Origin: an uncultured Candidatus Saccharibacteria bacterium
GTDB lineage: Bacteria; Patescibacteriota; Minisyncoccia; Minisyncoccales; UBA10102
Assembly (NCBI GenBank): GCA_964471385.1
Contig: CAYYFJ010000001.1
Coordinates: 19,133-58,046, forward strand
DNA length: 38,914 nucleotides
Direction: 5' to 3'
A model generated the notes under the pieces. The model was not told the DNA's origin, searched no databases, and worked only from the letters and a program-made list of their open reading frames with translations. This document shows, piece after piece, positions 3,086 to 38,911 of the stretch (position 1 is the first letter of the stretch; every line of letters begins with the position of its first letter). The position numbers were made by a program, and so were the translations under genes.

Positions 3086-3352
3086 TTACGCGGCGGATCT
3101 GGGAGCCATCTCACGCGCCTCGTTGACGGTGAGCATTCTTCCATCCAGTTCCTTGCCGTTGAACATTTCAATCGCGCTCTGCGCTTCCTCTTCCGTGGAC
3201 ATTTCCACGAATCCGAAGCCGCGAGATCTTCCGGAAATGCGGTCAACAATGATTGTTGCCGATTCTACTGTTCCGGCCTGCGCGAATGTGTTCCGCAAGG
3301 TTTCCTCGTTTGTCTGAAAAGACAAACCGCCTATATACAATCGTTTTGCCAT
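3086..3352 (-). CDS. RRM-domain RNA-binding protein (RNP-1/RNP-2), paralog 1
   Basis: ORF trimmed to the ATG at 3350-3352 (MAKRLYIGGLSF = RNP-2). RGFGFVEM = RNP-1. 88 aa. Confidence 0.85.
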   Translation of the reverse strand: MAKRLYIGGLSFQTNEETLRNTFAQAGTVESATIIVDRISGRSRGFGFVEMSTEEEAQSAIEMFNGKELDGRMLTVNEAREMAPRSAA

Positions 3353-3465
3353 GTGTTGGAACGAACTATTTGTTACTGTTGAGAGGACGACCGTCTCCTT
3401 TTTGCTTTTGGCCGATTGTATGGACGGCTGTGAAAACAAAACGAGAACTACCTCTAACGATTTGT

Positions 3466-12200: not shown

Positions 12201-15200
12201 AAAAACCCATACACCCCGTCAGCTGAAGGCGAGGCAAATCCCGACGAAGCGGACCACAACACAAAAGAATCAGCAGACTCGCTGGTTGTCCATGTGATAA
12301 TTGCCTTCTTTGAAGTGGCTCCCGAAGAAGAAACCGAAGAAATGTTGGGAGCAGTGATGTCGGCTGACGCTGTGGTAAAGCTGGACGCAGAAGATGTGGT
12401 GCTGTTGGTGGAAGGGTCAATAGACCTGACTTTGAAGTTATACGCGGTGTTGGGAGCTAATCCGACCAAAGTGACGGAGTGCGAAGTGACATACGAAGTC
12501 AGCCCTTGCGTGGAGGAATACGAGGTGTCTGTTGAATACAACACGGTGGAATCTGAAAGCTCGTCCGTGGTCCATGTTACGGTGACAGATGAAGTGTTGG
12601 GCGTGCCTGCCGCAACGGAAGATATCGCGGGTCCCGTGGCGTCAGACCCTCCTCCGCCCTCTCCGGCGTCCTGCGTGCCGTTGGCTTTTGCGCTAATGGA
12701 GAAGGAAAGGTAAGAAATGTCATCGTTGTTGTCCTGCGTGGAGATCTTGTAATAGTACAGAGTGTTAAGCACGGTGGAAGAATCGGCGTACGAGTTGGTG
12801 TTGATATTGGTAATGGTGGCAATGGAAGAAAAGCTTGTGCCGTCAGTTGACCTCATCACATTGTACTGCTTGAACGCGGCGGACGGAGGAGTCGCCGCGA
12901 CCTTCCAGGCAACGAACAACCGGTAATCCGCGGGAGATACTCTTGTGTTGGAAGTATCCTGAACCATGAGGGCTGTGGGAGTTTCAGGCGTGGTGGCGGA
13001 AACTGTGGTTGTGGTGTTGCCCCGCGCGTCGTAGAACTTCGCGTACACGACATCAGGGTCGGTTGCCAAGGCAAGAGTGGCGGAAGACGCGTATGAAACC
13101 TGCGACGCCCCCGCAAGATCCGAGTTGACGCTGACTTTCATTTGCAGTGCCGTGTCGTCCGTCGCAGAAAGCGTGACGCCAGCCGGGCTTGTGGTCGCAT
13201 CCACCGCAATGGAAGGAGAGCCAAGCGCCGGGTCTTTGGTGTCAAAACTAAAGCTTGCGGAGTCCGCGTTTCCGATGTTTTCAGATCCGTTGCCGTCATC
13301 CGCCACCACGCGCGTTACAGCGGTTGCCGAGTAAAAGCCGTCCACGTCCGACTTTGCGGTCCACACGATTGATTTGCCCGTCCCGTTCGTGATTGACGCG
13401 CCCGCGTTTCCCGAGACTGTCGCGGCTTTAATGTATATGGCGGTTCCCGAGTTGTGCGCCGCCGCGGTTGTGTTTGACACTCCGCGAGCTATGGTTCCCT
13501 GAAGGTCATTGCCCGATTTTGAGGTATAGGTGATGATCTCGCTTTCAATCATCAAGGTTCCGGAAGACGGGAAAAGCGACGAGCTGGAAACCGTGATCGC
13601 TGTGGTGTCGTTTGATGTCAAAGACTCGTTCACTGTGGCAAGAGACTTGTAATACAAAGACACTGTGGTTGAAGACTGCACGGCGTCTGTCACGTCATAG
13701 CCGACTGTTACCGCGCCGGCTGAACTCTGCGATGCCGTCACATTGGAAACCGTTGGAGGCGAGGTTTTGGTAATGGTGTCGCTCACCGTGCTTGAGGTGT
13801 TTCCCTTCGCATCTTTGAACTGCACGTACACAGTCTTGGTGCCGTCTCCCGCAGTAAGGGTCCATGAGGCAACAGATGTGTTGAATGTGATCCAGTTGCC
13901 AGAGTCGTTGTTCAGACCGTCCGCGGCAAGGCCGCTGTCGTTTGAAATCTTCATCTGCCCCGACACGCCAGAACTCATGTTGTCATCCGTCGCGGCAAGC
14001 GTAAGCGCGACGGTAAACGAAGTGGTGGTTGCGGCGGCCGCGGCGATTGAAATGGAAACGCTCGCGGGATTTTTGGTGTCCAGTGCGTAGTTCGCCGATG
14101 TCGCGCTTCCAACTTGGTTCGCAGACGCGCCATCGTTTGCCGCAACCCTCACGGTCGCGGTTGCAGAATAATATCCGTCAAGATCGGTTTTGGCTGTCCA
14201 TGTAATACTCTTGCCTGTGCCATTTGCGACCGAGCCGGTCGAGCCGGAGACGGTCACGGCTTTTATCCAGATCGTTGCGCCGCTACTATGCGCCGCGGCA
14301 AGCGTGTTTGACGCGCCCCGCGTTATTGTTCCGGCAAGATCGTTTCCGCTCACCGAGGTATAGTTGATTTGTTCGTCGTCAATAAAGACGGTTCCCGACG
14401 ACGGGATATTTGTTGCCGCGGAAAGCGTGATCGCCGTGGTATCAGAGTTTGAGAGCGACTCGTTAAGCGTTACGCCGACCTGATAAAGGAGGGTGACCGT
14501 CGTAGAGGAAGATTCATTATCGGTGACATCGTAGCCCACCGTAACGGTTCCGTTCGATCCCTGCGAAGCGGTGAGGTTGGAGACAGTGGGAGGAGAGTTA
14601 ACGAACGTAAACGATAATGACTGCGGAGGATCCTCGGTGAGCGTCCCCGAAAAACCTCCCGTATTCTTCGCGCGCGAGCGGATCTGATAAGTATGGTTCA
14701 ATGTCCAAGCGACAGAAGACGTACTGTACGACCATGTCGCGGTTCCGGTTGCAGCGATCCAGTTCTCTGATGTCTGATCAAAAGAATTATTTGAAGAGTT
14801 GTACCACTTGTTGACCGAAACATCAGTGTCTTTGATGGAAATCTCAACACTCGTCATGGGCCCTGATCCTGTTCCTCGGAGCGCGGTCACGCTGTACGGC
14901 TCCTGCGGGCTTGCCGCGGCTCCCGCGACGGTACAGCTGTTTCCAGTTGCACTACATATGGCAGTAATCGCTGAAGATGGCGGATATTCATAAAGAGTAC
15001 CCGCAGCACCGGCATTCGCTCCACTTCCTCCAGTTTTAGTCACAGAACCGGTAAAGGTGCTGCCCCCTGTAATATTAAGAGCGATCCTCCCTCCTCCTCC
15101 GCCGCCGCCATGACTATCGCCACCTCCACCATTCGCGGTAATAGAACCGGCTCCGGCAAGCGTGCCAGCTTGAATCCAGACGGAACCGCCCGATCCTCCG

Positions 15201-17752
15201 CCGCCGTCACGTGCCGAATTGTTAACATTAAATTGTCCATCACTACCATTTGCCACAATAGAACCAGACAAAGTTAATGTCCCTGTGATGATCAATTTAA
15301 CGGCTCCTCCCCCCGCTCCTCCAGTAGCATCGTACCCTCCTCCTCCTCCAGAACCAAGCGCAGTGGGCTGAGTGTTTGATCCATGCGTAATTCCTCCGCC
15401 CCCGACAGATCCATTACCTCCGGCCCCCCCATACCCTCCTCCCCCTCCTCCTCCAGAACTGCCCGCTCCGCTTCCTCCTCCTGTGCCGGATCCATTACTA
15501 GTACCTGTTGCAGCACCGGCGCTGCCTCTACCGTTAAGGCCAATGGAACCGGTAATGGTTGCATTTCCGCTTGCGTTGATCACTAATGCGGTTCCAGTGG
15601 CAGGATGAGAAAGAGTTCCACCGGAGTTAATGGTAAATGTGGTGGTCGTGATTGTTCCGCTATTGTAATTTACAAAATTGCTGATAGTAACGCTGTCAAA
15701 TGTCGCCGCGGAAATATTGTCAGCATTCGCAACTGCGCTGTCGTTCGCGTTGCTGTCCCAAATCAAGTCTCCATTTGTTTGTGAAGCAGACTTTTTGAGC
15801 ACGGTTCCGGGGCCTCCGCGCCGATTTCCAGTTCCTCCGTACGCAGTGGGAGTAATGGAAGAAGAATCAGTTGTATAATGAACTGCAATTCTTCCTCCCG
15901 CTCCACCCCCTCCATGGGTATCTCCGTTTCCACCACTCGCGGTAATGGAACCGGCTCCCGCAAACGTGCCCGTCTGAATCCAGACGGAACCGCCCGATCC
16001 TCCGCCGCCGTCTCGGGCTTCATAACCAGATGCATTTACATCTCCATTATTACCATTAGCTGTAATGGAGCCCGAGACAGTAAGTGTTCCCGAAACAATG
16101 AATTTTACAGCTCCTCCGCCTGATCCGCCACTACCGTCGTACCCTCCTCCTCCTCCAGAACCAAGAGCGGTGGGCTGAGTGTTTGATCCATGCGTAGCCC
16201 CTCCCCCCCCTACAGCTCCACTGCCTCCGGATCCTCCATATCCTCCTCCCCCGCCTCCTCCAGAACTGCCCGCTCCACTTCCTCCTCCTGCGCCGGTTCC
16301 ATTACTTGTACCTGATCCACCGGCGCTGCCCTTTCCATTCACGTTGATAGAACCTCCCGATTGCACATCAAGCGTAACGGCAGTTAAAGAAGTCAAATTT
16401 CCGCTAATGGTTCCCCCTGATTGAATGGTCACTGTTGAAGAGCCGCCGGACATATTGACGGTAAATGCGTTCGTGCCGGAAGCGGTGATTGTGCCCCCGT
16501 TCGCAACGGTAATATTGCCCGTGCCGGAAATGGTGTCTCCGTTGTTCATAGTGTTGCTGGAAGAGACCGTGCAGGTGTCGTTGAGCGTTCCCGTGTTGCA
16601 GGCAAAGTTGTGCGCCTTGGCGTTTTCCGTCTCGCCGAACGATAAGGCGATCCAATGCCTGCCGGAGCTCACCGCAGTGTTTCTGATTTTTGAGGTTTTG
16701 CCATCGCACGAGTAGCCGGGAACGGTCAGCGTGTCAGAATCCATCCAATCAATTTGGCTGTTTGGCACTTGGTTTTCACCGCAAAAAATTCCTTCAAAAC
16801 TGATGTCATCCGGGTAATGGGTGCCGTCAGCCGCCTGAATTTTTAAGTCGGACTGCGAGAATGTCCTGAAACTCGTTTCCCAGTAATCTCCCGTTGTAAG
16901 GTTTGACTCAACATTCAAAATCTCAAGATAGGCGCCGGCAAGTGCGGAAAAGTGGGAGGTTGAAAACGCGATGGAATTTCCTTTGTCTTTGGGAGCGGCG
17001 GAAGCAACCTCCCACTCATCGCAAGAGGAAGTTTCCTGATTGAATTTTTCAGTCGGACAGGAAAGCACCGCATTTACTTTTTCTTCGGGAGAAATCTTTT
17101 GAAGAGAAATGTCTGCCTGTTTGAAAGACAAAGCTCTGTCGTCAACAAAAACAATTTTTGTTTTAATCTGTTTGTCTTTTTTTGCGTCTGGGTTTGAGAG
17201 CTGGACTGAAAGCGGCTGGGACGGCTGGGAAGAAAGCCCCTTGATTTCAAGGCCCACAAAATTGTTCTGAACTTTCAATTGGTATGTCTTCGTTTTCTTC
17301 TCTTCATACAAAGACCCGAAAAGAAATTCATTGGAATTTGCTTCGCGATCCGCAATCTTCACGGGAACCTGCGCGGTGTACACAAGCGCGGGTTCTGACG
17401 GCTTTTGAATAAAAGAGATAAATTGAGAAAACAAAAAAATCCCCATCGCCAGCGACGGAATCACGATAAAAGAAAAAAGAGAAACGGCCGCTATACAGTC
17501 TCTAAAGCTCCGTCTCCAAAGAAACGGGGTTTCCAAAACAGCTTGACCGCTCTTGCGGCTTGCAGTGTTCTTATAGTTTCTTGTTCTCAATCCCGAGCTT
17601 TGCCGAGAGGGTAAGGGAAGATGATGGTTTGCGTGGCTTGCGCCGGCGCGCGAACTCAAAACGGACCTCTTCTTGGTCTTTCTTTTTTTTGATTTCAGCT
17701 GAACAGGTTTCTTGAGAGACAAAATAATTTTCGCCTTTCCTGGCATATTCAT
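9227..17752 (-). CDS. Giant (2841 aa) N-terminally anchored surface protein with glycine-rich modules, two 150-aa repeats, at least 10 FN3/purple-acid-phosphatase-N-like repeats and a K/E-rich linker
   Basis: Uninterrupted 8.5-kb ORF. Basic N-terminus plus a TM helix (CIAAVSLFSFIVIPSLAMGIFLF). Repeated pattern (A/P)P.IS.....T....A.ITW.T.E.A.S.V.Y......Y.......TSHSVTL..L...T.YYYRV.S.D..GN. The second ATG lies 6 nt downstream at 17744-17746. Confidence 0.88.
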   Translation of the reverse strand: MNMPGKAKIILSLKKPVQLKSKKRKTKKRSVLSSRAGASHANHHLPLPSRQSSGLRTRNYKNTASRKSGQAVLETPFLWRRSFRDCIAAVSLFSFIVIPSLAMGIFLFSQFISFIQKPSEPALVYTAQVPVKIADREANSNEFLFGSLYEEKKTKTYQLKVQNNFVGLEIKGLSSQPSQPLSVQLSNPDAKKDKQIKTKIVFVDDRALSFKQADISLQKISPEEKVNAVLSCPTEKFNQETSSCDEWEVASAAPKDKGNSIAFSTSHFSALAGAYLEILNVESNLTTGDYWETSFRTFSQSDLKIQAADGTHYPDDISFEGIFCGENQVPNSQIDWMDSDTLTVPGYSCDGKTSKIRNTAVSSGRHWIALSFGETENAKAHNFACNTGTLNDTCTVSSSNTMNNGDTISGTGNITVANGGTITASGTNAFTVNMSGGSSTVTIQSGGTISGNLTSLTAVTLDVQSGGSINVNGKGSAGGSGTSNGTGAGGGSGAGSSGGGGGGGYGGSGGSGAVGGGGATHGSNTQPTALGSGGGGGYDGSGGSGGGAVKFIVSGTLTVSGSITANGNNGDVNASGYEARDGGGGSGGSVWIQTGTFAGAGSITASGGNGDTHGGGGAGGRIAVHYTTDSSSITPTAYGGTGNRRGGPGTVLKKSASQTNGDLIWDSNANDSAVANADNISAATFDSVTISNFVNYNSGTITTTTFTINSGGTLSHPATGTALVINASGNATITGSIGLNGRGSAGAATGTSNGSGTGGGSGAGSSGGGGGGGYGGAGGNGSVGGGGITHGSNTQPTALGSGGGGGYDATGGAGGGAVKLIITGTLTLSGSIVANGSDGQFNVNNSARDGGGGSGGSVWIQAGTLAGAGSITANGGGGDSHGGGGGGGRIALNITGGSTFTGSVTKTGGSGANAGAAGTLYEYPPSSAITAICSATGNSCTVAGAAASPQEPYSVTALRGTGSGPMTSVEISIKDTDVSVNKWYNSSNNSFDQTSENWIAATGTATWSYSTSSVAWTLNHTYQIRSRAKNTGGFSGTLTEDPPQSLSFTFVNSPPTVSNLTASQGSNGTVTVGYDVTDNESSSTTVTLLYQVGVTLNESLSNSDTTAITLSAATNIPSSGTVFIDDEQINYTSVSGNDLAGTITRGASNTLAAAHSSGATIWIKAVTVSGSTGSVANGTGKSITWTAKTDLDGYYSATATVRVAANDGASANQVGSATSANYALDTKNPASVSISIAAAAATTTSFTVALTLAATDDNMSSGVSGQMKISNDSGLAADGLNNDSGNWITFNTSVASWTLTAGDGTKTVYVQFKDAKGNTSSTVSDTITKTSPPTVSNVTASQSSAGAVTVGYDVTDAVQSSTTVSLYYKSLATVNESLTSNDTTAITVSSSSLFPSSGTLMIESEIITYTSKSGNDLQGTIARGVSNTTAAAHNSGTAIYIKAATVSGNAGASITNGTGKSIVWTAKSDVDGFYSATAVTRVVADDGNGSENIGNADSASFSFDTKDPALGSPSIAVDATTSPAGVTLSATDDTALQMKVSVNSDLAGASQVSYASSATLALATDPDVVYAKFYDARGNTTTTVSATTPETPTALMVQDTSNTRVSPADYRLFVAWKVAATPPSAAFKQYNVMRSTDGTSFSSIATITNINTNSYADSSTVLNTLYYYKISTQDNNDDISYLSFSISAKANGTQDAGEGGGGSDATGPAISSVAAGTPNTSSVTVTWTTDELSDSTVLYSTDTSYSSTQGLTSYVTSHSVTLVGLAPNTAYNFKVRSIDPSTNSTTSSASSFTTASADITAPNISSVSSSGATSKKAIITWTTSESADSFVLWSASSGFASPSADGVYGFFDSVTSHSVTLPAVLNASTTYYYRVRSTDAAGNTSLSSQSSFVTTAASSDTTAPTISEISSGTPGVNTATITWTTSESASSFVEFGATTLYGRVAGQYDAVTSHSVAMPRDLTANTPYHYRVRSTDSAGNEKLSADQTFTTASSSADSTAPVISSVTTSESTATSVAITWSTGELSDSLIEYSVTAGSFLLSQGTPTMATSHSITLVGLTPSTQYYYRVKSTDAAGNIGTANNGGNGFTFGTGASSSTPPVISNIEIKDVTTQTATVTWATNKSASSIVEFGFDTSYGRTAGKFDSVTSHTVSLPADLLSDIAYHFRVRSTDSDNNTAVSKDLTFTTNPSQAVQVAEDTTAPSISSVTAALTSQTGATITWTTNEDANSKVEYGITVSLGTSTTEDTNYTTEHSVTLSNLTAATMYYYQVISKDRSNNSTTSDNSGQKYSFATSAPSGSTTIVYGNVQDTTAPAISSIKVSSITQNSAVLTWDTSEYADSFVKYGTSKGAYAVTTGQFESVSSHTVTLQNLAPGTAYYFVVQGKDTAGNLGSSSEQSFTTEGTAPAVPKTEEKTPETPKAETKKEEPKKEEAKKEEAKREEPKPTTKEIPIFEPQSPITLKVQNIEQSVESIGVSEFVKRASQTFIDQFIEAFPTRWTVRSIDEERFISSIREASSKIVSAPSINGSDIEVSAGPRSAVVRWSTDKKSNSLIAFAPDKEYNPAKENSYATTVGTPDEQVTQHLVTLTGLNPGTTYHYQIQSQGQIGPMAKLEDRTFATASLNPEIVDAEFREIKEDKVALVWKTDLPTRTIVETTDAATGKKILQEDKSYLKDHSFTLENLKPSSAYILRLTAEDEEGNSSSSSLLPFSTAASTEPPIISQVRVTSSLIPERVETAQTIISWKTNKPSTSQVFYIEGVNPNQDFKLHTPEDPALVTEHIVITTAFKTGRVYQFKAQSSDPSGNTSLSTAYTILTPKPRQSVVDLIIRNFEDTFTFMKRVGL
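9305..12645 (-). repeat. Intragenic array of FN3-like units of about 90-95 aa (7 units at about 10545-12645, K/E-rich linker at about 10395-10540, 3 divergent units at about 9305-10195)
   Basis: Periodicity read from the translated protein. Boundaries are approximate, within about 30 nt. Confidence 0.65.
13290..14600 (-). repeat. Intragenic duplication: two modules beginning PPTVSN(L/V)TASQ...TV(T/S)L(L/Y)Y... (about 14130-14600 and about 13290-13765)
   Basis: The two protein segments align residue by residue over about 150 aa (for example GTITRGASNTLAAAHSSGATIWIKA against GTIARGVSNTTAAAHNSGTAIYIKA). Spacing is about 835 nt. Confidence 0.7.
15066..16349 (-). repeat. Intragenic duplication of a glycine-rich module (about 15066-15547 and about 15874-16349)
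   Basis: The DNA segments ggctgagtgtttgatccatgcgta...cctcctccagaactgcccgctcc... recur about 805 nt apart. Proteins: GSAG.SGTSNG.G.GGGSGAGSSGGGGGGGYGG.GG.G.VGGGG.THGSNTQPTALGSGGGGGYD..GG.GGGAVK.I..GTLT.SGSI.ANG...ARDGGGGSGGSVWIQ.GT.AGAGSITA.GG.GD.HGGG..GGRIA. Confidence 0.8.
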
Positions 17753-19435: not shown

Positions 19436-20350
19436 CTATTGCTTAGGATGCGTCAGATTGAGAGAAAGCTTTCTTGCAAACGCTTGGAGCTGTTCGTCCA
19501 TGGCGTTGCGCGCCAATCCTTCCCGCACCATAGTTTCAGCTCCAAGCCGGTCCCCTTTTTTCAACAACACATTGGCAAGAAGCAGATACGACTTTGTGTA
19601 GTCTCCGTTAAAGCTGAGCGCCTCCTCGTACAAGCTTTTTGCTTTTTCAAGGTCTCCCAGAGCTTCATACGCTTCCCCTTGCTGAAGGTTCACCAGAGGA
19701 GTTTTCGGAAAAAAACTTTTCAGTTTTTCGTATGAAGCGATGGCGTCTTCATACGCGCCGTTCCATGTCTGTAAAATCGCCAACTGCCAAAGATACCCTC
19801 CGTTGGAGGGATCGGCTTCAAACGCTTTGTGAAAATAGGTCTCTGCCTTTCGCAGACTGCGCGCCTCAAGATACGAAAGCGCCCGTTTATACAGCGCCTT
19901 CCCTTTGTCCTGCGGGTCTGAAAACTGAAGCGCCGCGAGAAAACTTGCGAAGACTCCGGCAGTAAGCAAGATGACCAGCCACCGTACTGTCTCATGCTCC
20001 CTCAAAAACACCGCAACCGGCTCCGTTCCCTTGGAAATTTTCTTGGCAACCTGGTTTCCAAGCAAACGAGAAACAAACCAAGAAATCAAACCAAAAATCC
20101 GCTTGGAAATCCACCCGGAGACCCGCTTGAAAACCAAATATACAACAGCTGTTGCATGCTCAAAAACCCGCCCCCCAATTCGGAGACACACGGAGTGTGT
20201 CTCCGACACAAATTGCCCTAAATGTCCAGCTCGCAACACAGCGTGTTGCAGGACAGCTTGCAGTTGCGGTATAAAATTCGCGCGCCTGCCGGATTGCCGA
20301 TTATGGCCGCCGAATTGCTGATATCCTTTTTCTTTACAAACCCTGCTCAT
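19436..20350 (-). CDS. TPR-repeat protein with a signal-anchor helix. The true start is uncertain (ATG 20350, or GTG 20011 giving 191 aa)
   Basis: C-terminal 150 aa contain TPR-like repeats (AETYFHKAFEADP, YEDAIASYEKL, GDLEKAKSLYEEALSFN, LLLANVLLKKGD). The TM helix is WLVILLTAGVFASFLAALQF. The N-terminal 113 codons read through the REP-A hairpin at 20181-20205. The GTG at 20009-20011 has GGAG 9 nt upstream. Confidence 0.6.
   Translation of the reverse strand: MSRVCKEKGYQQFGGHNRQSGRRANFIPQLQAVLQHAVLRAGHLGQFVSETHSVCLRIGGRVFEHATAVVYLVFKRVSGWISKRIFGLISWFVSRLLGNQVAKKISKGTEPVAVFLREHETVRWLVILLTAGVFASFLAALQFSDPQDKGKALYKRALSYLEARSLRKAETYFHKAFEADPSNGGYLWQLAILQTWNGAYEDAIASYEKLKSFFPKTPLVNLQQGEAYEALGDLEKAKSLYEEALSFNGDYTKSYLLLANVLLKKGDRLGAETMVREGLARNAMDEQLQAFARKLSLNLTHPKQ
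20181..20205. repeat. REP-like hairpin, family A, copy 1 (cGGAGACACAC-gga-GTGTGTCTCCg)
   Basis: Perfect 11-bp stem with a 3-nt loop, read directly. Confidence 0.85.
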
Positions 20351-20378
20351 ATTCGCTTTGAATGTTTTTCACCACTAA

Positions 20379-20399
20379 GAGACACACGGAGTGTGTCTC
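20379..20399. repeat. REP-like hairpin, family A, copy 2, 15 nt 3' of the RayT-like gene stop
   Basis: GAGACACAC-gga-GTGTGTCTC, a perfect 9-bp stem. Confidence 0.85.
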
Positions 20400-20413
20400 C
20401 GCAATGTTTATGA

Positions 20414-21139
20414 CTATTTGTCAAGATAAAGTGAAGAATCATACTGCTCGTATTGTTTGCCCTCTATAACACTCTCAACGAATTCTTTATACTCTTGCGA
20501 ACTTGGAAAAAGCAAGCCGGCGATTCCTTTTTCCGCAACAACGGATTCCCGGAGCCCAAGATATTCTTTGTGAGTACTCCATGGGTATTCCTCGGCAAAT
20601 TTCAAAATTGCTTTTGCGTTCAATACTCCTCTATTCTTTAAATCTGGTTCTACGAGCTGTCCCGGATTGACAACATGCAAATACGCGAGCAAGTATTTCA
20701 TTTGGTCATCGTTTTCAACGCGCACGGCGCGAAAAGGACCTTGAAACAATCCTCCAACGCGGGCATATCTTTCGTTAAAATACTTGGCAAATCCCATGCC
20801 AAGTTTATGCATAAAATTTGAGATGCCGCGTTCTTGGAGCTCTTCAAGAACTAAATGATAATGATTCGGCATAAAACAATCGGCAATAATCCGTACAAGC
20901 GGTGTTCGCACCGGCACTATTTCTTCAAGAGATGCGCGCAATGTTTTAAAATTTAAACGCTTTTTTCTCACGGCAAGATCCCATAAAAGCCGGTGCGAAG
21001 TCGTCTTGTTATTAAATAAGAAGAGCGCTTGGAGAAATCTCCAGCGATCCGTGTCGTCAAGAAAAATATCGCGTTTCTCAACGCCCCGGTTGAATATATG
21101 GTAAATTCCCCCAACCTCAAACTTCAAGTATCTGCTCAT
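20414..21139 (-). CDS. REP-associated tyrosine transposase (RayT / IS200-like Y1 HUH transposase family)
   Basis: YHIFNRG near the N-terminus. HUH motif in CFMPNHYHLVL. FMHKLGMGFAKYFNERY.R.GGLFQG.F. Catalytic Tyr region YLLAYLHVVNP, then YPWSTH. ATG at 21137-21139 (an alternative GTG at 21154 would add 5 aa). Confidence 0.85.
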   Translation of the reverse strand: MSRYLKFEVGGIYHIFNRGVEKRDIFLDDTDRWRFLQALFLFNNKTTSHRLLWDLAVRKKRLNFKTLRASLEEIVPVRTPLVRIIADCFMPNHYHLVLEELQERGISNFMHKLGMGFAKYFNERYARVGGLFQGPFRAVRVENDDQMKYLLAYLHVVNPGQLVEPDLKNRGVLNAKAILKFAEEYPWSTHKEYLGLRESVVAEKGIAGLLFPSSQEYKEFVESVIEGKQYEQYDSSLYLDK

Positions 21140-21149
21140 AACGATTAAA

Positions 21150-21334
21150 GACACTTAGGACACTTAGGACACTTGAGACACACGGAGTGTGTCTCCGACA
21201 CGGAATCGATTATCTGTCAACCCCATTTCCACGCCTCCTACTAAAAAGTGAGGTTTCGGAGACACACGGTTCGGAGACACGGTTCGGAGAGACACACGGA
21301 GTGTGTCTCCGACACGGAAATTGATATCTGTCAA
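21150..21334. repeat. Complex REP-A cluster 5' of the RayT-like gene: 3 x 9-bp gacactt(a/g)(g/a); two 46-bp direct repeats each starting with the hairpin (21175-21220 and 21289-21334); three tandem half-sites ttcggaga(ga)cac(ac)gg (21255-21299)
   Basis: Read directly. Hairpins are gagacacacggagtgtgtctc at 21175-21195 and 21289-21309, both followed by cgacacggaa..gat.atctgtcaa. Confidence 0.85.
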
Positions 21335-21353: not shown

Positions 21354-21489
21354 TATCTATCACTAATGAAAACACTGACTGAAACACTATCTATCACTAA
21401 TGAAAACACTGATTGAAACATTATCTATCACTAATGAAAACACTGACTGAAACACTATCTATCACTAATTAAGACACTGACCGAAACAC
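21354..21489. repeat. Tandem repeat, 4 x 34 bp (tatctatcactaatgaaaacactgactgaaacac), iteron-like
   Basis: Copies start at 21354, 21388, 21422 and 21456. The period is exactly 34 bp and the last copy is diverged (taattaagacactgaccgaaacac). Each unit carries two GAAACACT sub-motifs with starts 12-13 nt apart. Confidence 0.9.
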
Positions 21490-21511
21490 TAACTAAAATT
21501 TTACTATACTT

Positions 21512-22273
21512 CTAAGCGGCGAGCCAGCCGCCGTCAACATACAATGTGGCGCCTGTCACATAGCTTGCTTCTTCTGAAGCGAGAAACACCACTGCCGCCG
21601 AGACTTCTTCCGGCTTTCCAATGCGCTTGAGGGGAACTGCCGCGAGCATGGCGTTCATTGCGTCTTGCGGTATTTGCGCCGCAGAAACCATGGGAGTGTC
21701 AATAGCTCCGGGCCCAATCGCATTCACATTGATTCCAAGCGGAGCCCATTCCACGGCAAGCGTCTCTGTCATGCCAAGCACACCGCCTTTTGACGCCGTA
21801 TAATGAACCCCGCCCGCAATGCCGACTCCAACCTGCCCGGACGCGATTGACGCGATGTTGATAATCCGTCCCCACTTGTTCTTTGCCATTTCTTTTGCCG
21901 CGCGCTGGGCGCATAAAAACTCTCCCTTCAAATTGATATGAATTGTTTTCTCCCATTCTTCTTCCGTAAGATCCAGGGCTGGCTTTGGCGCGTAAATTCC
22001 GGCGTTGTTCACAAGAATATCCAATCGCCCAAAATGTTTGACAACCGCGTCAAAAACTTCGTTGACCTCCGCCGCGCTTGACACGTCAAGCTTGAAAGCA
22101 ACGGCTTCTCCGCCTTTTGCCGCGATTTCATCCGCGACCTGCCGGCACTCGCCAAGGTCAATATCCGTCACCGCGACCTTCGCGCCCTGCAGAGCCAACG
22201 CCAGCGCGTGCGCCTTGCCCATTCCCCTTCTCGCGCCCGTCACCAGCGCGACTTTGTTTGTGAGTTCAAACAT
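21512..22273 (-). CDS. Short-chain dehydrogenase/reductase (FabG / glucose-1-dehydrogenase-like)
   Basis: TGARRGMG cofactor motif, NNAG, and catalytic YTASKGG (YxxxK). 253 aa. Confidence 0.9.
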   Translation of the reverse strand: MFELTNKVALVTGARRGMGKAHALALALQGAKVAVTDIDLGECRQVADEIAAKGGEAVAFKLDVSSAAEVNEVFDAVVKHFGRLDILVNNAGIYAPKPALDLTEEEWEKTIHINLKGEFLCAQRAAKEMAKNKWGRIINIASIASGQVGVGIAGGVHYTASKGGVLGMTETLAVEWAPLGINVNAIGPGAIDTPMVSAAQIPQDAMNAMLAAVPLKRIGKPEEVSAAVVFLASEEASYVTGATLYVDGGWLAA

Positions 22274-25558: not shown

Positions 25559-25897
25559 TTAGTAATCTCTCCTTCTTGCTCCAAATCCTCCTCCTCTTCG
25601 GTCTCCGCCGTCTCTGCCTCCAAATCCTCCCGTTCTCTGCGGGCGATCGGAAAGCGGGCGCGCTTCATTCACGGTGAGCGTTCTGCCGTCAAGTTCCTTG
25701 CCGTTGAACATATCAATGGCGGCCTGCGCTTCCTCGTCGCTTGCCATTTCCACAAATCCGAATCCGCGCGATCTGCCGGAAATCTTGTCTATGATCAGAG
25801 TCGCGGACTCCACGGTTCCCGCCTGCGCAAACGTACTGCGCAAAGTCTCTTCGCTTGTTCCGTAGGAAAGTCCTCCAACATAAAGCTTCTTTGCCAT
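25559..25897 (-). CDS. RRM-domain RNA-binding protein with C-terminal RGG-rich tail, paralog 2
   Basis: MAKKLYVGGLSY (RNP-2) and RGFGFVEM (RNP-1). The tail is GGFGGRDGGDRRGGGFGARRRDY. Confidence 0.88.
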   Translation of the reverse strand: MAKKLYVGGLSYGTSEETLRSTFAQAGTVESATLIIDKISGRSRGFGFVEMASDEEAQAAIDMFNGKELDGRTLTVNEARPLSDRPQRTGGFGGRDGGDRRGGGFGARRRDY

Positions 25898-26039
25898 GCT
25901 CGTTTCGTCTATTGTTGTTAATTATGTATAGGACGACACTCTTTTCTCCTTGCTTCTCAAGCGAGCTCGTTGAGAGACTTTGCCTGCTGTTCCCTTGCCC
26001 GCAGGGGGCGGGAAATACAACGAGAAAACCTATGGTGCG

Positions 26040-30849: not shown

Positions 30850-31044
30850 TTACAATTGCGAGCCCTGCTTTAAGCCTGTGTATCCAAGAAATCCCGCGGC
30901 TGGCACGGCGAGCCAGCTCAGCCATATCGGAACATCCCATGTTCCGATTGCCGCGTCCCACTGCAGAATAATCCTTGCGAGATGCAATGCGGCAATAACA
31001 GAAAAAATCGCTCCCGCAATCAGCATAAATTGTTTCGCGCTCAT
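30850..31044 (-). CDS. Small two-helix membrane protein (64 aa)
   Basis: ORF 30850-31188 trimmed to the ATG at 31042-31044 (MSAKQFMLIAGAIFSVIAALHL...), because the longer version would read through direct repeat DR1 and its terminator. Confidence 0.5.
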   Translation of the reverse strand: MSAKQFMLIAGAIFSVIAALHLARIILQWDAAIGTWDVPIWLSWLAVPAAGFLGYTGLKQGSQL

Positions 31045-31121: not shown

Positions 31122-31165
31122 CAAAGGGCTCCGAATATTCGGAGCCCTTTTCTACGGCATCAGGT
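31122..31165. repeat. 44-bp direct repeat DR1 containing the 28-nt perfect palindrome aaagggctccgaat|attcggagcccttt (bidirectional terminator shape)
   Basis: Identical base for base to 33164-33207. The flanking bases differ (g/g here, t/c there). Confidence 0.95.
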
Positions 31166-31170
31166 GTAAG

Positions 31171-31200
31171 AAAAAACCTCTGCCACAATCGCGGCAGAGG
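31171..31200 (-). terminator. Rho-independent terminator belonging to the cassette
   Basis: Minus strand reads CCTCTGCC-gcgattgt-GGCAGAGG-TTTTTT, starting 4 nt after the TAA at 31204-31206. Confidence 0.75.
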
Positions 31201-31203
31201 GGT

Positions 31204-32445
31204 TTACTTCCGCTTCACGCCAAGAATGACGTAAGGGAAGTAGAAGGGAGAACGGAACGAAAACTTGCGCTCTTCTCCCGGCATGACAAACGTCGTCTGG
31301 CGACAGGCGATGAGTGCACGGCCGGGATAGAGGAGAGGCGAGAGACCAAGCAATAGCGCTCTCTCCCTTGCGTCAGTGGCCGCGAAGAGGGAGTGCGCCG
31401 TTTTGTTCTGGAACACCCCCGCCGCCACATCGAGTGAGACTGTGCCGAGGGCGAAGAGTTTTTCGCCGTGCGGCACAGTGCCCATGTTCCCAAGCCAACC
31501 AGCCAGTATCTCAACTTCTTCTGGCGCGATGGTGAGCTTGGTAACATGCCTGTCTCCCAGGCAGACGGCGATTCGCCGAAGAGCTTCCCGGTAGAGCTCC
31601 AGCATCCCTCCTCCAATCCACTTGGGATGTGGCTCTCCGGCTATAGCGACAGTTCCTCCGCCGTCAGCAAGAGGAAAATTTTTCTTCATGAAGCAGGCGA
31701 GATCCCACTGGATGGACCTCGTCTCGCCCGCCGCCTCTAAGAGGGATTTGGCGGGAATGGCGTGAAGCCGAGCTTTTTCCACAAGCATCCGCAGGTGGAT
31801 AAGCTCGCCGGCAGACAAGCTGCGTCCTTCCGCAGCCGCCCGACTCTTCGTCCCTTCCTGAAACCTCAGGACCTCCTTCCTCAATCTCTCAATGGGAGGC
31901 GGCGCAATCTCCGCCTCGAGGCGAATCGCGAACAGTCGGGCATCGCGGTGTGCAACCTGGAACTCCTCCTGCCGCGATCCCGCAAACTGGGTCGCAACTG
32001 CCTCAAGGAACCACCGCGCCCACGCGTCATACCGGCGAGCGATTTCCTCCGCTCGCGCGACTTCTTCTTCCTTGGAGCGCAGACGTTGCTCCAAGCCACC
32101 GATCCGCAGAGTCAGTTCGGCAACCTGGCTCCGCAAGCTACGCTCCTCACGCCGGACAAAGACGTAACCCTGGCGGAACTCCCGGAGCGCCTCGTCGAAT
32201 CGCGCGCGATTCTTGAGGAGCTCAAGAGCCTTGGAGAACCGTAGAGTGTTCGCGGCAGCTTCGCCACCCCGTAGATCAGGATGAGCCTTTGCCATAAGGT
32301 TCCTGGCAATTTGCCGACAGTGATCGTAGAGATCGCCGTCGGAAAGCCCCAGACCCAAAATCTCCGGGGTGATCCCGATGAGAGCGAGTGGATTTTCCTC
32401 CTCGCCCTCGCCACGCAAGCGGCGGACAAGGTCTCTACCGAGCAT
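31204..32445 (-). CDS. J-domain (DnaJ-like, HPD motif) protein with central coiled coil and uncharacterised C-terminal domain of about 200 aa
   Basis: Residues about 18-95, NPLALIGIT...LYDHCRQIARNLMAKAHPDLRGGEAAANTLRFSKALELLKN...RFDEAL, align to the J-domain helix II-HPD-helix III pattern (compare E. coli DnaJ [33 protein letters not shown]). Residues about 100-150 are an Arg/Glu-rich heptad region. GGAGGAG SD lies 5 nt upstream of the ATG. Confidence 0.7.
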   Translation of the reverse strand: MLGRDLVRRLRGEGEEENPLALIGITPEILGLGLSDGDLYDHCRQIARNLMAKAHPDLRGGEAAANTLRFSKALELLKNRARFDEALREFRQGYVFVRREERSLRSQVAELTLRIGGLEQRLRSKEEEVARAEEIARRYDAWARWFLEAVATQFAGSRQEEFQVAHRDARLFAIRLEAEIAPPPIERLRKEVLRFQEGTKSRAAAEGRSLSAGELIHLRMLVEKARLHAIPAKSLLEAAGETRSIQWDLACFMKKNFPLADGGGTVAIAGEPHPKWIGGGMLELYREALRRIAVCLGDRHVTKLTIAPEEVEILAGWLGNMGTVPHGEKLFALGTVSLDVAAGVFQNKTAHSLFAATDARERALLLGLSPLLYPGRALIACRQTTFVMPGEERKFSFRSPFYFPYVILGVKRK

Positions 32446-32446
32446 C

Positions 32447-33097
32447 TTACTCCTCCCTCAAGGAATATTTATTCAAGAGCTCGATCACATCGTCGAAGTC
32501 GCGGACACAGAACACGCCGCCTCCGCCCTGTGTCGCATGCTCGGCGATATGGCCGAGGATAATCCCCATCCAAGCGGGCAGAGGAAGCCTGCTCCTCACA
32601 CCCGCGCCACGCAGGATCGCGTGAAGGTTGTTCTCCACCATCTCAACGATGTCAACGGCGTGCTCGCCGTATGCCATCGCTAATTTGGTGGCAACACGCA
32701 CGGTCGGAACACTGCGAACGCCGAGCTCCCAGAATCTCTCGAGAAGCTCTAGGGCAATGGCGAGGTAGTCGCCAACTTCCACCATGGTGTTCACGACAAG
32801 GTTTTCTCCGACCACTCGGTCCTCAAGATCCCTTGCCGTGAGCTTCCGTTCGCCAATCAACTCCCGGAAGATCTTCCCGAAAGTCTCCGGCAACGTCGCG
32901 CGCCGCAACCGAAGCGAGAGCGCAACCTCCAAATAGACTTGCTGTTCCAGAGGCGCAGGCAACGCGTCCTGAATCCTCCGGACCAGCGCCTCGGGAGACC
33001 ACTTGAGTCTCCTTGCGAGCGCCGTGACACCCTGTCCATCAACGGACAGGCTTCCGTCGGGATTCCGCGGAACAAGAGCCCTCTTCCCATCAGCCAT
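32447..33097 (-). CDS. Hypothetical protein (216 aa), first gene of the cassette, family not recognised
   Basis: ATG at 33095-33097 preceded by AAGGAGGAG. The stop TAA (32447-32449) is 1 nt from the downstream ATG. The composition is Arg/Ala/Leu/Glu/Val-rich, unlike the neighbouring genes. Confidence 0.7.
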   Translation of the reverse strand: MADGKRALVPRNPDGSLSVDGQGVTALARRLKWSPEALVRRIQDALPAPLEQQVYLEVALSLRLRRATLPETFGKIFRELIGERKLTARDLEDRVVGENLVVNTMVEVGDYLAIALELLERFWELGVRSVPTVRVATKLAMAYGEHAVDIVEMVENNLHAILRGAGVRSRLPLPAWMGIILGHIAEHATQGGGGVFCVRDFDDVIELLNKYSLREE

Positions 33098-33163
33098 CCG
33101 CGTCTCCTCCTTCTTATTCTATGCTAGCACGAGGCTAACACATTAAAATCTATTTGTCAAATT

Positions 33164-33207
33164 CAAAGGGCTCCGAATATTCGGAGCCCTTTTCTACGGC
33201 ATCAGGT
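33164..33207. repeat. 44-bp direct repeat DR2 (identical to DR1), which also serves as the terminator of the DUF378 gene
   Basis: Starts 6 nt after the DUF378 stop codon (33214-33216) in the minus-strand sense. Confidence 0.95.
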
Positions 33208-33213
33208 CAATCC

Positions 33214-33408
33214 TTATCCTCTTTTCGTGAATGCTTCCCACGCCACGTACACGGCTGACAATCCGACTAAATCATACACCAATTTTGCGGCTGTTGTCCC
33301 TTCGCCTAGAACGGCTGTCACGAGGTTGAAATCGAGCAAACCCACAAGGCCCCAGTTCAACCCGCCAACCACGACAAGAACCATGGCAAGCGTGCTTACA
33401 AGTTTCAT
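33214..33408 (-). CDS. DUF378-family small membrane protein
   Basis: LVVVGGLNWGLVGLLDFNLV...VYDLVGLSA is the characteristic DUF378 pattern. 64 aa. Confidence 0.8.
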   Translation of the reverse strand: MKLVSTLAMVLVVVGGLNWGLVGLLDFNLVTAVLGEGTTAAKLVYDLVGLSAVYVAWEAFTKRG

Positions 33409-36268: not shown

Positions 36269-36790
36269 CTATAAGGTTTCGTCCTTGTGGGGCCTTTTTT
36301 GTTTATATTCAAGTTTTTGCCTCAAATCATTTGCATATCTCAAAAATGGCCTGAAGTTTTTATGTTTGAGCAAGGCAGAGAATTTCAAACGATTTGGAAT
36401 AAGCAAAATTCCAAGCTTGTTCTTTTCAACGAAATAATTTGCTAAACAATAAAAATCGCCGTCACCCGTAACAATGATTGCTTTGTCATAGCGCTCATAT
36501 TCAATCATTGCGTGCAGTACAAGTTCCGCGTCGCAATTTCCTTTTGTTGTTCCATCTTTATATCGCAGTGTCGGCTTGAAAATACAAAGAAACCCTGCTT
36601 CCTGCAACCGAATGTAAAGATCATTATTGCCTTCAATATACCCAATGAATAAAAACGCTTTTGACACATTATATTTCTCTTTGAGATAGACGCGAAAACG
36701 CAGAAAATCCAATTTCCAGCCGAGTTCCTGAATACTTAAATTCAGATTTTGGCTGTCTATAAACGCATAGTTGTTTAACTGAAGTTTCAT
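36269..36790 (-). CDS. NYN-domain (LabA/DUF88-like, PIN-fold) protein
   Basis: AFIDSQNL...GNCDAELVLHAM.....YDKAIIVTGDGDF matches the NYN/LabA acidic-residue pattern. Confidence 0.78.
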   Translation of the reverse strand: MKLQLNNYAFIDSQNLNLSIQELGWKLDFLRFRVYLKEKYNVSKAFLFIGYIEGNNDLYIRLQEAGFLCIFKPTLRYKDGTTKGNCDAELVLHAMIEYERYDKAIIVTGDGDFYCLANYFVEKNKLGILLIPNRLKFSALLKHKNFRPFLRYANDLRQKLEYKQKRPHKDETL

Positions 36791-36876
36791 TTGGCGATTA
36801 TATCATATTATTGCGCCGAGCTCACGCAAAAGGAGCTCCGAAGAGCTCCTTGTTCCCGTCGCTGGGTCTGCCGTCC

Positions 36877-36925
36877 GTCGCGGGGTCGTACCCCGCGACG
36901 CCGTCGCGGGGTCGTACCCCGCGAC
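36877..36925. repeat. REP-like element family B doublet, full-palindrome form GTCGCGGGG-tcgta-CCCCGCGAC (36877-36899 and 36903-36925)
   Basis: 9-bp stem and 5-nt loop, with a 26-nt period. It ends 1 nt before the typA stop codon. A degenerate partial copy lies just upstream at about 36855-36875. Confidence 0.85.
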
Positions 36926-36926
36926 G

Positions 36927-38723
36927 TTAATGGGAGGCGCGTTCGGCGCGCACGCGGTCAATTGCAGTCAGATATTTCTTGCGGAGGCGCGCGCTGTCGG
37001 GAGTAACCTCCAAATACTCGTCCTCCGCCATAATTTCAAGTCCGTTTTCAATGGTAAGCGCAAGCACAGGGTCCAGCTGGATTTTTTTGTCAGAATCAGA
37101 ATCGCGCATATTGGTCAAATGTTTGCCTTTTGTCGGATTGACCGACATCTCAACGCCGTTGGACACATTTCCAACCACCATGCCTTCATACACTTCGGTT
37201 CCCGGAGCCACATACAGCGTGCCGCGCTCCTGAAGATTGGCAAGCGCGTAGCTTAATGCTTTTCCTGAAGCCATGGAAACCATGGACCCAAATGTTTTTT
37301 TTGCGATAGCGCCGGCATACGGCTCAAACCCGAGAACGCGGCTGGAAAAAATGCCCTCGCCCCTTGTGTCCACCACAAACTGCCCCCTATATCCAAGCAA
37401 TCCCCTTGTGGGACCCTTAAACGTCAGGCGCACGGTATGTTCATGCGCGTGCACATTCGTGAGCACAGCTCCCCGCTGTCCGAGTTTTTCAATCACCGCG
37501 CCCTGAAACTCCGCGGGCGCGTCCACAATCACTTCTTCAAACGGCTCCATTTTTTTGCCGCCGATTTCTTTCACAATCACCTGCGGCTGGGACACCTGCA
37601 GTTCAAATCCCTCGCGGCGCATATTCTCCAGCAAAATGGCAATGTGCAATTCGCCTCTTCCATATACTTTGAACCGGTCGCCAGACTCGCTCTCTGAAAA
37701 ATCCACATGCAAGCCCACATTTACCTCCAGCTCTTTTTCAAGCCTCTCGCGCAACTGGCGCGACGTGACAAATTTGCCTTCTTTTCCCGCAAACGGAGAA
37801 TTGTTCACGAGAAAATTCAGCGCGATGGTCGGCTCATCTACTGTTATGGAAGGAAGCTGTTCCTGTTCGGGAGACGAACAAATAGTATCTCCAATGGTAA
37901 TGGCGGGAATGCCCGCGATCATCACAATGTCGCCCGCTGACGCTGACGCAACGTCTTCCCTTTCCAAGCCCCTGAAGGTAAAGAGTTTGGTGATTTTCCC
38001 GCGATACATTTCTCCTTCCTTGTTTTTTACAACCACCTCATCTCCCGTTTTGATTGTTCCGTCATATATTCTTGAAATGGCAAGGCGGCCGAGAAAATTG
38101 TCGTAGGCAAGGTTAAACGGCTGAACGCGCAAAAGAGCGTCAGCTTGCCCGGAAGCCGGCGGCACGTATTCTAAAATAGCGTCAAGCAGAGGAGCCAAAT
38201 TGCTTGATTCGTCAGCGAGTTTCTTTTTCGCCACGCCTTCCCTTCCCACCGCGTAAATCACGGGGAAATCAAGCTGTGCGTCGTTTGCTCCAAGCTCCAT
38301 AAAAAGCTCGTACACCTGCTCAATCGCGCGCTCCGGATCTGCGGCCTGCTTGTCAATTTTATTGATCACCACAATGGGCTTTAACCCAAGCTCTAGTCCC
38401 TTTTTCAGCACAAAACGGGTCTGGGGCATGGGCCCCTCCTGCGCGTCCACCACCAGAATAACAGAATCAATGGAACGCAGAACGCGCTCCACCTCCGAAC
38501 CAAAATCCGCGTGCCCGGGCGTGTCCACAATGTTGATTTTTGTACCTTTATAAAACGCGGCTGTGTTTTTCGCGTAAATGGTAATGCCGCGCTCCTGCTC
38601 TAAAGCGTTTGTGTCCATGCTCATGCCTTCTTTAAACATTCCGGTCTGGCGCATAATGGCGTCAGTCAGCGTGGTCTTTCCGTGATCCACATGAGCTATA
38701 ATCGCGATATTGCGTATTTCCAT
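36927..38723 (-). CDS. typA: Translational GTPase TypA/BipA
   Basis: [21 protein letters not shown] (G1), DTPGHADF (G3), NKID (G4), and EF-G-like domains throughout. ORF trimmed to the ATG at 38721-38723, because the upstream 39 codons run into the leader and repeats. Confidence 0.92.
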
Positions 38724-38822: not shown

Positions 38823-38831
38823 GTTTTTTTT

Positions 38832-38856: not shown

Positions 38857-38862
38857 ATTTCC

Positions 38863-38911
38863 GTCGCGGGGTCGTACCCCGTAATGGCGTCGCGGGGTCG
38901 TACCCCGTAAT
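38863..38911. repeat. REP-like element family B doublet (gtcgcggggtcgtaccccgtaat x 2)
   Basis: Units at 38863-38885 and 38889-38911. They are the reverse complement of the units at 1-23 and 38-60. Confidence 0.85.

Follow-up and report, generated by a model that had tools for sequence, protein, structure and literature searches.

A foreign two-gene cassette between perfect 44-bp direct repeats at a terminator hairpin in a Patescibacteria genome

Anatomy of the cassette and its repeat

The DNA analyzed here, referred to throughout as the window, is a stretch of 38,914 nucleotides of contig CAYYFJ010000001.1 (assembly GCA_964471385.1) from an uncultured member of the Patescibacteriota. In the window, the spacer between a DUF378 gene and a small membrane-protein gene contains a compact cassette of two minus-strand genes, which we call A and B, bracketed by two copies of the 44-mer CAAAGGGCTCCGAATATTCGGAGCCCTTTTCTACGGCATCAGGT. 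A first-pass annotation, made from the letters of the sequence, had interpreted this layout as an apparent insertion of foreign DNA. We found that the foreign origin of the cassette genes is well supported, while the direct repeat is a plausible, although not demonstrated, scar of the insertion.

The repeat is perfect over 44 bp and occurs exactly twice in the window, with no third copy detected when up to 3 mismatches were allowed. None of 100 dinucleotide-preserving shuffles contained a match to the 44-mer, and none is expected by chance. The bases directly outside the two copies differ, as had been reported (g and t on the left, g and c on the right), and 1,998 bp separate the copies. No other pair of intergenic regions in the window shares so long an exact match. 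The next-longest intergenic matches, of 26, 24, and 22 nt, all lie within palindromic cores; the identity between the two 44-mers includes 16 nonpalindromic bases and extends over about twice the length of the other repeat pairs.

The 44-mer is composed of a C, a perfect 28-bp palindrome (AAAGGGCTCCGAAT joined to ATTCGGAGCCCTTT), and a 15-nt asymmetric tail. The palindrome can be parsed as 11-6-11 (AAAGGGCTCCG AATATT CGGAGCCCTTT), is fully symmetric, and functions as a terminator hairpin; as RNA, the 44-mer forms a 12-bp hairpin of −22 kcal/mol (z = −5.6). It contains neither bulges nor a GTTRRRY motif. An element exploiting Xer recombination (IMEX) would be expected to carry a 28-bp 11-6-11 site similar to dif; the palindrome does not resemble known dif consensus sequences, from which the dif site of the host lineage may differ. 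No inverted repeats were found at the cassette ends, and an Rfam scan of the window returned nothing.

Between the two copies lie A and B and no other gene, coupled as TAA-G-ATG and followed by a private terminator, which was recovered by a terminator call as a hairpin with a T-run (Table 1). The absence of a mobility gene from the cassette also held up: searches of Pfam, PADLOC, NCBIfam, and PHROGs assigned neither A nor B to a family, whether of transposases, integrases, or anything else. Among all open reading frames (ORFs) of the 39-kb window, no recombinase or integrase was found beyond a transposase-like ORF about 10 kb away that is described below. A promoter for the cassette can be proposed from the sequence, with a consensus −35 box and a weak −10 box, in a region that was not flagged by a promoter scan. 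The cassette is thus a nonautonomous but self-contained unit with a promoter-like box, two coupled genes, and its own terminator.

The two repeat copies differ in what follows them on the minus strand. The copy on the DUF378 side continues into GAATTTGACA (GAAUUUGACA), so that the −35-like box of the cassette stands in place of a U-tract. The copy on the side of the small membrane-protein gene continues into GCTTTCTTGC, a U-rich tract (UUUGCUUUCUU); it was flagged as terminator-like and is the sole copy with a proper U-tract.

Table 1. Features of the cassette and its flanks, in the order in which they are read on the minus strand
Feature	Coordinates	Strand	Remarks
Upstream flank, DUF378 gene (64 aa)	33214..33408	-	Its terminator hairpin is the repeated element
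Repeat copy, DUF378 side	33164..33207		Palindrome 33165-33192; begins 6 nt past the DUF378 stop codon
Promoter-like site	33132..33160	-	TTGACA 33160-33155; 17-nt spacer ending TG-n; TAGCCT 33137-33132
Gene A (216 aa)	32447..33097	-	AGGAGG Shine-Dalgarno site at 33106-33111
Gene B (413 aa)	31204..32445	-	Shine-Dalgarno site GGGAGGAG
Intrinsic terminator of the cassette	31171..31200	-	CCTCTGCCGCGATTGTGGCAGAGG then TTTTTT; hairpin 31177-31200; the second repeat copy follows after 5 nt
Repeat copy, small-membrane-gene side	31122..31165		Palindrome 31123-31150
Downstream flank, small membrane-protein gene (64 aa)	30850..31044	-

Foreign origin and protein families of the A-B pair

The shift in base composition that had been suspected from hand counts was borne out by windowed computation. 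GC content is 0.588 in the cassette against 0.499 ± 0.025 in other 2-kb windows (maximum, 0.560; z = 3.5), and the GC content at third codon positions (GC3) is 0.66 in B and 0.70 in A, compared with 0.42 to 0.59 in the other annotated genes. The tetranucleotide distance of the cassette ties for the maximum of the window. Both proteins are rich in arginine and poor in lysine, with R/(R+K) values of 0.73 and 0.78 against about 0.25 to 0.6 in most neighbors. The strong Shine-Dalgarno sites likewise proved peculiar to the pair: the computed duplex with the anti-Shine-Dalgarno sequence reaches −11.7 kcal/mol for A and −11.4 kcal/mol for B, values found in only 2 of 26 genes, while the energies of the other 24 lie mostly above −3 kcal/mol and are at best −7.1 kcal/mol. 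Evidently, Shine-Dalgarno sites play little part in how the host starts translation, and those of A and B arrived with the cassette. The boundaries of the repeat coincide with those of the compositionally foreign segment. Because A and B differ from the other 24 genes by three independent measures, namely, GC and GC3 content, amino acid usage, and Shine-Dalgarno usage, and because their homologues occupy unrelated neighborhoods in other Patescibacteria, we conclude that horizontal acquisition of both genes is well supported.

Two other parts of the window stand out in composition. An NYN-domain gene (36269-36790) is an outlier in the opposite direction, with a GC content of 0.362 and a GC3 of 0.39, far under the window mean of 0.50. 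A 2,841-aa ORF (9227-17752) contains many Fn3 and purple-acid-phosphatase-N-type repeats, and its DNA is internally repetitive in stretches of about 800 nt; it probably encodes a giant surface protein and explains the window's other stretch of high GC content and high tetranucleotide distance.

As the first-pass annotation had proposed, homologues of the two proteins were examined for co-occurrence and neighborhood. At 7 of 7 independent Patescibacteria loci, those at which the DNA surrounding a B homologue was available, an A homologue (phmmer E of 1e-16 to 1e-33) lies directly upstream of the B homologue, overlapping or abutting it. The genes around the pair differ from locus to locus (loci are given here by L numbers): a beta-propeller gene at L009, tRNA synthetases at L092, RmuC and ribosomal protein L21 at L094, tRNA-Ser and a type IV pilus cluster at L176-L185 (Nealsonbacteria), and IF3-L35-L20, SmpB, and FtsH at L186. 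Each homologous module carries its own TTGACA box and its own terminator. The GC content of the pair exceeds that of its flanks at L094 (0.519 versus 0.387) and L176 (0.501 versus 0.434), slightly so at L009 (0.420 versus 0.387) and L010 (0.486 versus 0.456), and not at L092 and L186. The pair is, as far as seen, restricted to Patescibacteria, where it behaves as a patchily placed accessory unit across the phylum and not as an evident phage or plasmid gene set.

In Nealsonbacteria (L176, 1425-3675; L180, 1-2224), the pair sits directly after tRNA-Ser(UGA) and before the type IV pilus cluster, with a GC content of 0.50 versus 0.43 to 0.45 in its flanks. The terminators that flank it there share the exact T-rich 15-mer GGGCTTTTTTGTTTT, the sole exception to the repeat-free flanks of the pair elsewhere. 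This sharing may be the relic of an insertion but is probably a convergence of terminators.

Other origins for the pair were considered and set aside. A phage or plasmid origin found no tblastn matches (A and B in a phage collection; B in a plasmid collection) and no loci in IMG/VR, and readings as a prophage or a defense system were dropped given that no PHROG or PADLOC match was obtained.

A and B could instead be long-standing residents of this genome next to which the DUF378 terminator was duplicated locally, their composition being either a family trait or a mark of old DNA that has not ameliorated. The pair does look chromosomally stable in Nealsonbacteria and at L186, where it lies amid core genes and recurs in many samples, and the lack of a mobility gene agrees with such a history. 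However, GC3 is raised at synonymous sites, beyond the effect of amino acid content, the homologues elsewhere are not GC-rich in absolute terms (0.42 to 0.52), and strong Shine-Dalgarno sites precede these two genes only. In addition, the cassette's own terminator leaves the second one without an obvious need. We therefore regard long residence as improbable.

The clearest functional clue comes from B. A HMMER scan of 1.84 billion cluster representatives recovered 158 relatives at E ≤ 1e-3, only 4 of which, besides B itself, reached E ≤ 1e-30, the best being 34% identical; a word-indexed profile search with the B-family alignment returned only 3 proteins. No donor of the cassette was identified, because even the closest B homologue is this distant. 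The residues H55-P56-D57 are invariant in 19 of 19 aligned relatives, within a conserved N-terminal domain of about 90 residues, and the same HPD motif was present in all 6 further B homologues examined. The B-family profile matched solved J domains (Sis1, DNAJA1, and Escherichia coli DnaJ) with E values from 4e-4 to 1e-2, spanning helix II, the HPD motif, and helix III. Weak matches to Pfam DnaJ (PF00226) were found for 4 of the 19 relatives (best E, 7e-4), and UniRef names relatives "J domain-containing protein."

Structure prediction agreed with these results. The AlphaFold2 (AF2) model of B, with a predicted local distance difference test score (pLDDT) of 76.6, places helices 36-54 and 65-77 on either side of the HPD motif, followed by one continuous helix (80-152, a coiled coil) and an alpha/beta C-terminal domain. 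The top Foldseek match for B in the PDB was the J domain 2och (probability, 0.96; template modeling score on the target, 0.58; E = 0.21), and the top matches in BFVD, a viral library, were J-domain proteins. For the C-terminal domain, no fold match was found in the PDB or BFVD; its near-invariant residues (P243, W247, G334, and P370) do not look catalytic. B is thus a protein with a divergent N-terminal J domain.

Recruitment of Hsp70 is the hallmark of J domains with an HPD motif, and because B carries such a domain, it is most likely a specialized cochaperone of DnaK. Its HPD motif would recruit the host Hsp70 (DnaK), its coiled coil would dimerize, and its C-terminal domain would hold a client or a scaffold. 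No enzymatic or defense function is indicated for either protein. Protein A matched no family or PDB profile (Pfam, NCBIfam, PADLOC, PHROGs, and PDB), and it would be an obligate partner of B, acting as client, adaptor, or modulator, in an arrangement loosely comparable to CbpA-CbpM.

CbpA-CbpM, HscB, DjlA, and Rki of phage RB43 resemble B in that an HPD J domain is fused to a family-specific C-terminal region, and cbpAM, like the A-B pair, is a two-gene operon with a small partner. B has no sequence or fold similarity to any of these proteins beyond the J domain, however. A is unrelated to CbpM and is encoded upstream of the J-domain gene, whereas CbpM is encoded downstream.

Hairpin families of the window and assemblies of the locus

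The window harbors other intergenic hairpins, one family of which surrounds a transposase-like gene. The ORF at 20414-21154 (minus strand, 246 aa, GC content of 0.42) weakly matched the IS200-type family Y1_Tnp of Pfam (E = 5e-5, 23.8 bits) and the NCBIfam model of the repetitive extragenic palindrome (REP)-associated tyrosine transposase (RAYT), the latter below the cutoff (E = 4.5e-6). The hairpin GAGACACACGGAGTGTGTCTC with its tail is present in five copies, four flanking this ORF (region 20179-21334) and the fifth at 38830. Together, the hairpins and the ORF look like a RAYT/REP system in a Patescibacteria genome. A second family, the doubled GC-rich hairpin CGCGGGGTCGTACCCCGCG, occupies three intergenic sites (1-62, inverted; 36874-36947; and 38860-38907), and the core gene typA lies between two of its units, which have the same orientation and are 92% identical over 48 nt. 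Of 21 adjacent intergenic pairs, 3 have in common an exact direct match of 22 nt or more; the match is 44 nt long around the cassette, 24 nt around the RAYT-like gene, and 22 nt around typA. Because the RAYT-like gene and typA are also bracketed by hairpin repeats, bracketing has an appreciable base rate here and alone is no proof of insertion.

These families raise the possibility that the 44-mer is itself a dispersed, REP-like terminator hairpin that was copied to the adjacent spacer by RAYT-type transposition or gene conversion, independently of the cassette; the bracketing would then be coincidental. Among the 20 other adjacent spacer pairs, 2 have hairpins to either side of the intervening gene (the RAYT-like gene and typA), the window contains a RAYT-like ORF with hairpins around it, and the 44-mer shares the size and design (a GC-rich palindrome with a short tail) of the other hairpin units, which are 46 to 48 nt long. 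Members of the other families are, however, 78 to 93% identical outside the core, whereas the two 44-mers are identical throughout, their nonpalindromic bases included. The 44-mer also differs in sequence from GAGACACACGGAGTGTGTCTC, the hairpin around the RAYT-like gene, and was seen just twice in 39 kb and not at all in the other sequences searched. Moreover, its edges coincide with those of the foreign segment, and the distribution of U-tracts favors insertion after the DUF378 hairpin. We consider independent copying of the hairpin a credible but rather unlikely alternative.

The two 44-mers might also be the end hairpins of an element resembling insertion sequences of the IS200/IS605 group, or palindrome-associated transposable elements (PATEs), which carries A and B as cargo and was moved in single-stranded form by a Y1/HUH enzyme acting in trans. 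The hairpins at the two ends have identical tails and point the same way, an arrangement also seen at the left and right ends of IS200/IS605 elements, a Y1 transposase-like gene lies in the same window, and TTAC is found 15 nt 5' of the second hairpin. Against this, the hairpins around the Y1-like gene have another sequence, the left and right ends of known elements resemble each other without being identical over 44 nt, DUF378 would lose its terminator upon excision, and no other copy of such an element is known. This origin appears very unlikely to us.

Two further repeats in the window concern neither the 44-mer nor the cassette. A 34-nt unit, TATCTATCACTAATGAAAACACTGACTGAAACAC, is present in about four to five tandem copies at 21354-21523, between the RAYT-like gene and an SDR gene. 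Two genes for RRM-domain (RNA-binding) proteins (3114-3353 and 25659-25898) are paralogues, 74% identical over 240 nt and 22.5 kb apart.

We also compared assemblies of the locus. The window is 99.9% identical to JACPIC010000007.1, from a groundwater metagenome-assembled genome of Candidatus Wildermuthbacteria (GCA_016188285.1), in which the two genes are tagged HYV78_00390 and HYV78_00395. Parts of the locus were also found in Logan contigs from at least 8 runs of that project; built with k = 31, these contigs all end or begin exactly 30 nt (k − 1) inside the repeat, and the cassette contig measures exactly 1,998 + 30 + 30 nt. The NCBI contig (L001, 5200-5225) lacks 49 bp corresponding to positions 33115-33163 of the window, comprising the last hairpin bases on the DUF378 side and the whole promoter-like region. 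Three Logan assemblies match the window at this site, and the NCBI contig has an N-patch at window position ~28917, where the window is continuous. The 49-bp difference reflects either a strain in which the cassette has become fused to DUF378 transcription or an artefact of assembly or curation. Because the same contig has the N-patch, we give the deletion no weight as evidence of heterogeneity at the junction.

The contig could in principle have been misassembled, with a separate 2,042-bp molecule, circular or located elsewhere and sharing the 44-mer, threaded into it. A k = 31 graph cannot tell an integrated from a circular form, the Logan cassette contig has exactly the length given above, and the NCBI contig shows its 49-bp difference at one junction as well as the N-patch elsewhere. 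Nevertheless, the window and JACPIC010000007.1, which are long contigs assembled independently, agree on the position of the cassette and include both of its junctions. In addition, contigs of the cassette and of its flanks co-occur across samples of the same project, and long-term maintenance of a 2-kb molecule that lacks a replication gene is unlikely. We judge an artefact highly improbable.

A proposed insertion at a terminator hairpin and its alternatives

The order of elements reported by the first-pass annotation (DUF378 gene, terminator, insert, duplicated terminator, and small membrane-protein gene) fits the entry of foreign DNA at the 3' foot of the hairpin that terminates DUF378. The repeat starts 6 nt past the DUF378 stop codon and extends as far as the foot of the hairpin. 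The U-tracts are as expected had the insert landed directly behind the hairpin: one is retained on the side of the small membrane-protein gene, whereas the DUF378 copy runs into the TTGACA box. In that case, the ancestral order would have been DUF378, hairpin, GCTTTCTT, and small membrane-protein gene. The second hairpin is redundant, because the terminator of the cassette precedes the second copy by 5 nt and places two terminators in tandem.

The spacer itself is variable in distant relatives. In one (L066, 6613-9590), a homologue of the small membrane-protein gene directly follows a Ca-ATPase gene, and in another (L102, 880-5262), other small genes lie between the Ca-ATPase gene and the homologue. 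Because both have the homologue there with neither DUF378 nor the A-B pair at that spacer, gene content at this position evidently changes. The small membrane proteins of the two relatives are 44 to 51% identical to the 64-aa protein of the window, and the Ca-ATPase neighborhood suggests a functional link between a P-type ATPase and the small membrane protein.

We favor, as a reading with about an even chance of being correct, a recent nonautonomous insertion at the terminator hairpin in which the event itself generated the 44-bp repeat. That the repeat arose with the insertion, and by what mechanism, is what we infer. A 1,998-bp unit would have entered the spacer between the DUF378 and small membrane-protein genes at the 3' foot of the DUF378 hairpin, leaving the 44-bp segment at both junctions. 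Two routes could produce this outcome. In the first, the chromosomal 44-mer would recombine with the same 44-mer on a 2,042-bp circle in a Campbell-type event, a route that would also permit excision and reinsertion within the population. In the second, a trans-acting enzyme would cut on both sides of the hairpin and thereby duplicate the target. A more specific form of this idea, an undescribed Patescibacteria route in which a trans-acting Y1/HUH-type or Cas1-like integrase would recognize a terminator hairpin, insert the 2-kb cassette at its foot, and duplicate the 44-bp segment, strikes us as doubtful.

A number of observations weigh against the favored insertion and its proposed cargo. No empty site came to light: the 22-nt hairpin core had no exact match in the genome, metagenome, and viral contig collections, and the searches turned up no empty-site allele, circular junction, or close relative. 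Relatives of the Ca-ATPase flank among genome and metagenome contigs are at most 74% identical and show no synteny with respect to DUF378, the small membrane-protein gene, NUDIX, or the sigma factor. The breaks in the Logan contigs say nothing on an integrated, empty, or circular form, because any 44-bp repeat gives them. At the homologous A-B loci, no comparable flanking direct repeats were found, and given the other bracketing hairpin units of the window, the 44-mers may have nothing to do with how the cassette arrived. We know of no mechanism that yields a 44-bp target duplication. As to the cargo, the nearest B homologue is remote, B itself gave no Pfam DnaJ match at E ≤ 0.1 and falls under the gathering threshold, and the all-helical fold predicted for A is of low confidence (AF2 pLDDT, 53).

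Among known systems, the cassette is closest to the islets and cis-mobilizable elements (CIMEs) that lack an integrase and are bounded by att repeats. Shared features are a small block of deviating composition, direct repeats at both junctions in which the 3' end of a resident transcription unit is duplicated, and the lack of a recombinase of its own; the target here is, however, an intrinsic terminator hairpin and not a tRNA or transfer-messenger RNA (tmRNA) gene, and no integrase was seen in the 39 kb. With REP sequences, REPINs, and their RAYTs, the repeat shares a GC-rich palindromic intergenic hairpin with a short tail that is repeated and doubles as a terminator, but the 44-mer has only two perfectly identical copies in the window, unrelated to the hairpins at the RAYT-like gene. 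To our knowledge, REPs do not deliver a 2-kb cargo.

Other mobile elements offer partial parallels. The cassette resembles IS200/IS605 elements and PATEs in its subterminal hairpins, which have the same orientation at the two ends, and in lacking terminal inverted repeats; unlike them, it has no TnpA or TnpB, its ends are 100% identical over 44 nt, and neither a second copy nor a cognate transposase is known. Integron cassettes are likewise of promoter-to-terminator size and are moved by an integrase in trans at attC sites, which are imperfect palindromes, whereas the palindrome described here is perfect, without R and L boxes, extrahelical bases, or GTTRRRY, no IntI or attI accompanies it, and the cassette has its own promoter-like box. 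Classical transposons and insertion sequences have terminal inverted repeats, a transposase, and a target duplication of 2 to 15 bp; the cassette has neither inverted repeats nor transposase, and its repeat is 44 bp long. We thus describe the cassette as an integrase-less islet bounded by direct repeats, new in sitting at a terminator hairpin of a genome of the candidate phyla radiation (CPR).

Patescibacteria (CPR) genomes are tiny, and little is known of how they acquire genes, with few mobile elements described. A cleanly delimited foreign unit of 2 kb, with REP-like hairpins and a RAYT-like gene nearby, offers a concrete example in which the acquisition of genes on a small scale can be tested in these bacteria. 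If the doubtful integrase route described above were real, terminator hairpins would serve as attachment sites at which small promoter-to-terminator units are moved, and the cargo in this instance would be an uncharacterized Hsp70-recruiting two-protein module. The pair is in itself an uncharacterized, phylum-wide two-gene module, with about 158 cluster representatives of its J-domain partner, which was accompanied by the same helical protein at every locus examined. It points to an Hsp70 system dedicated to particular clients in bacteria whose proteostasis machinery is minimal.

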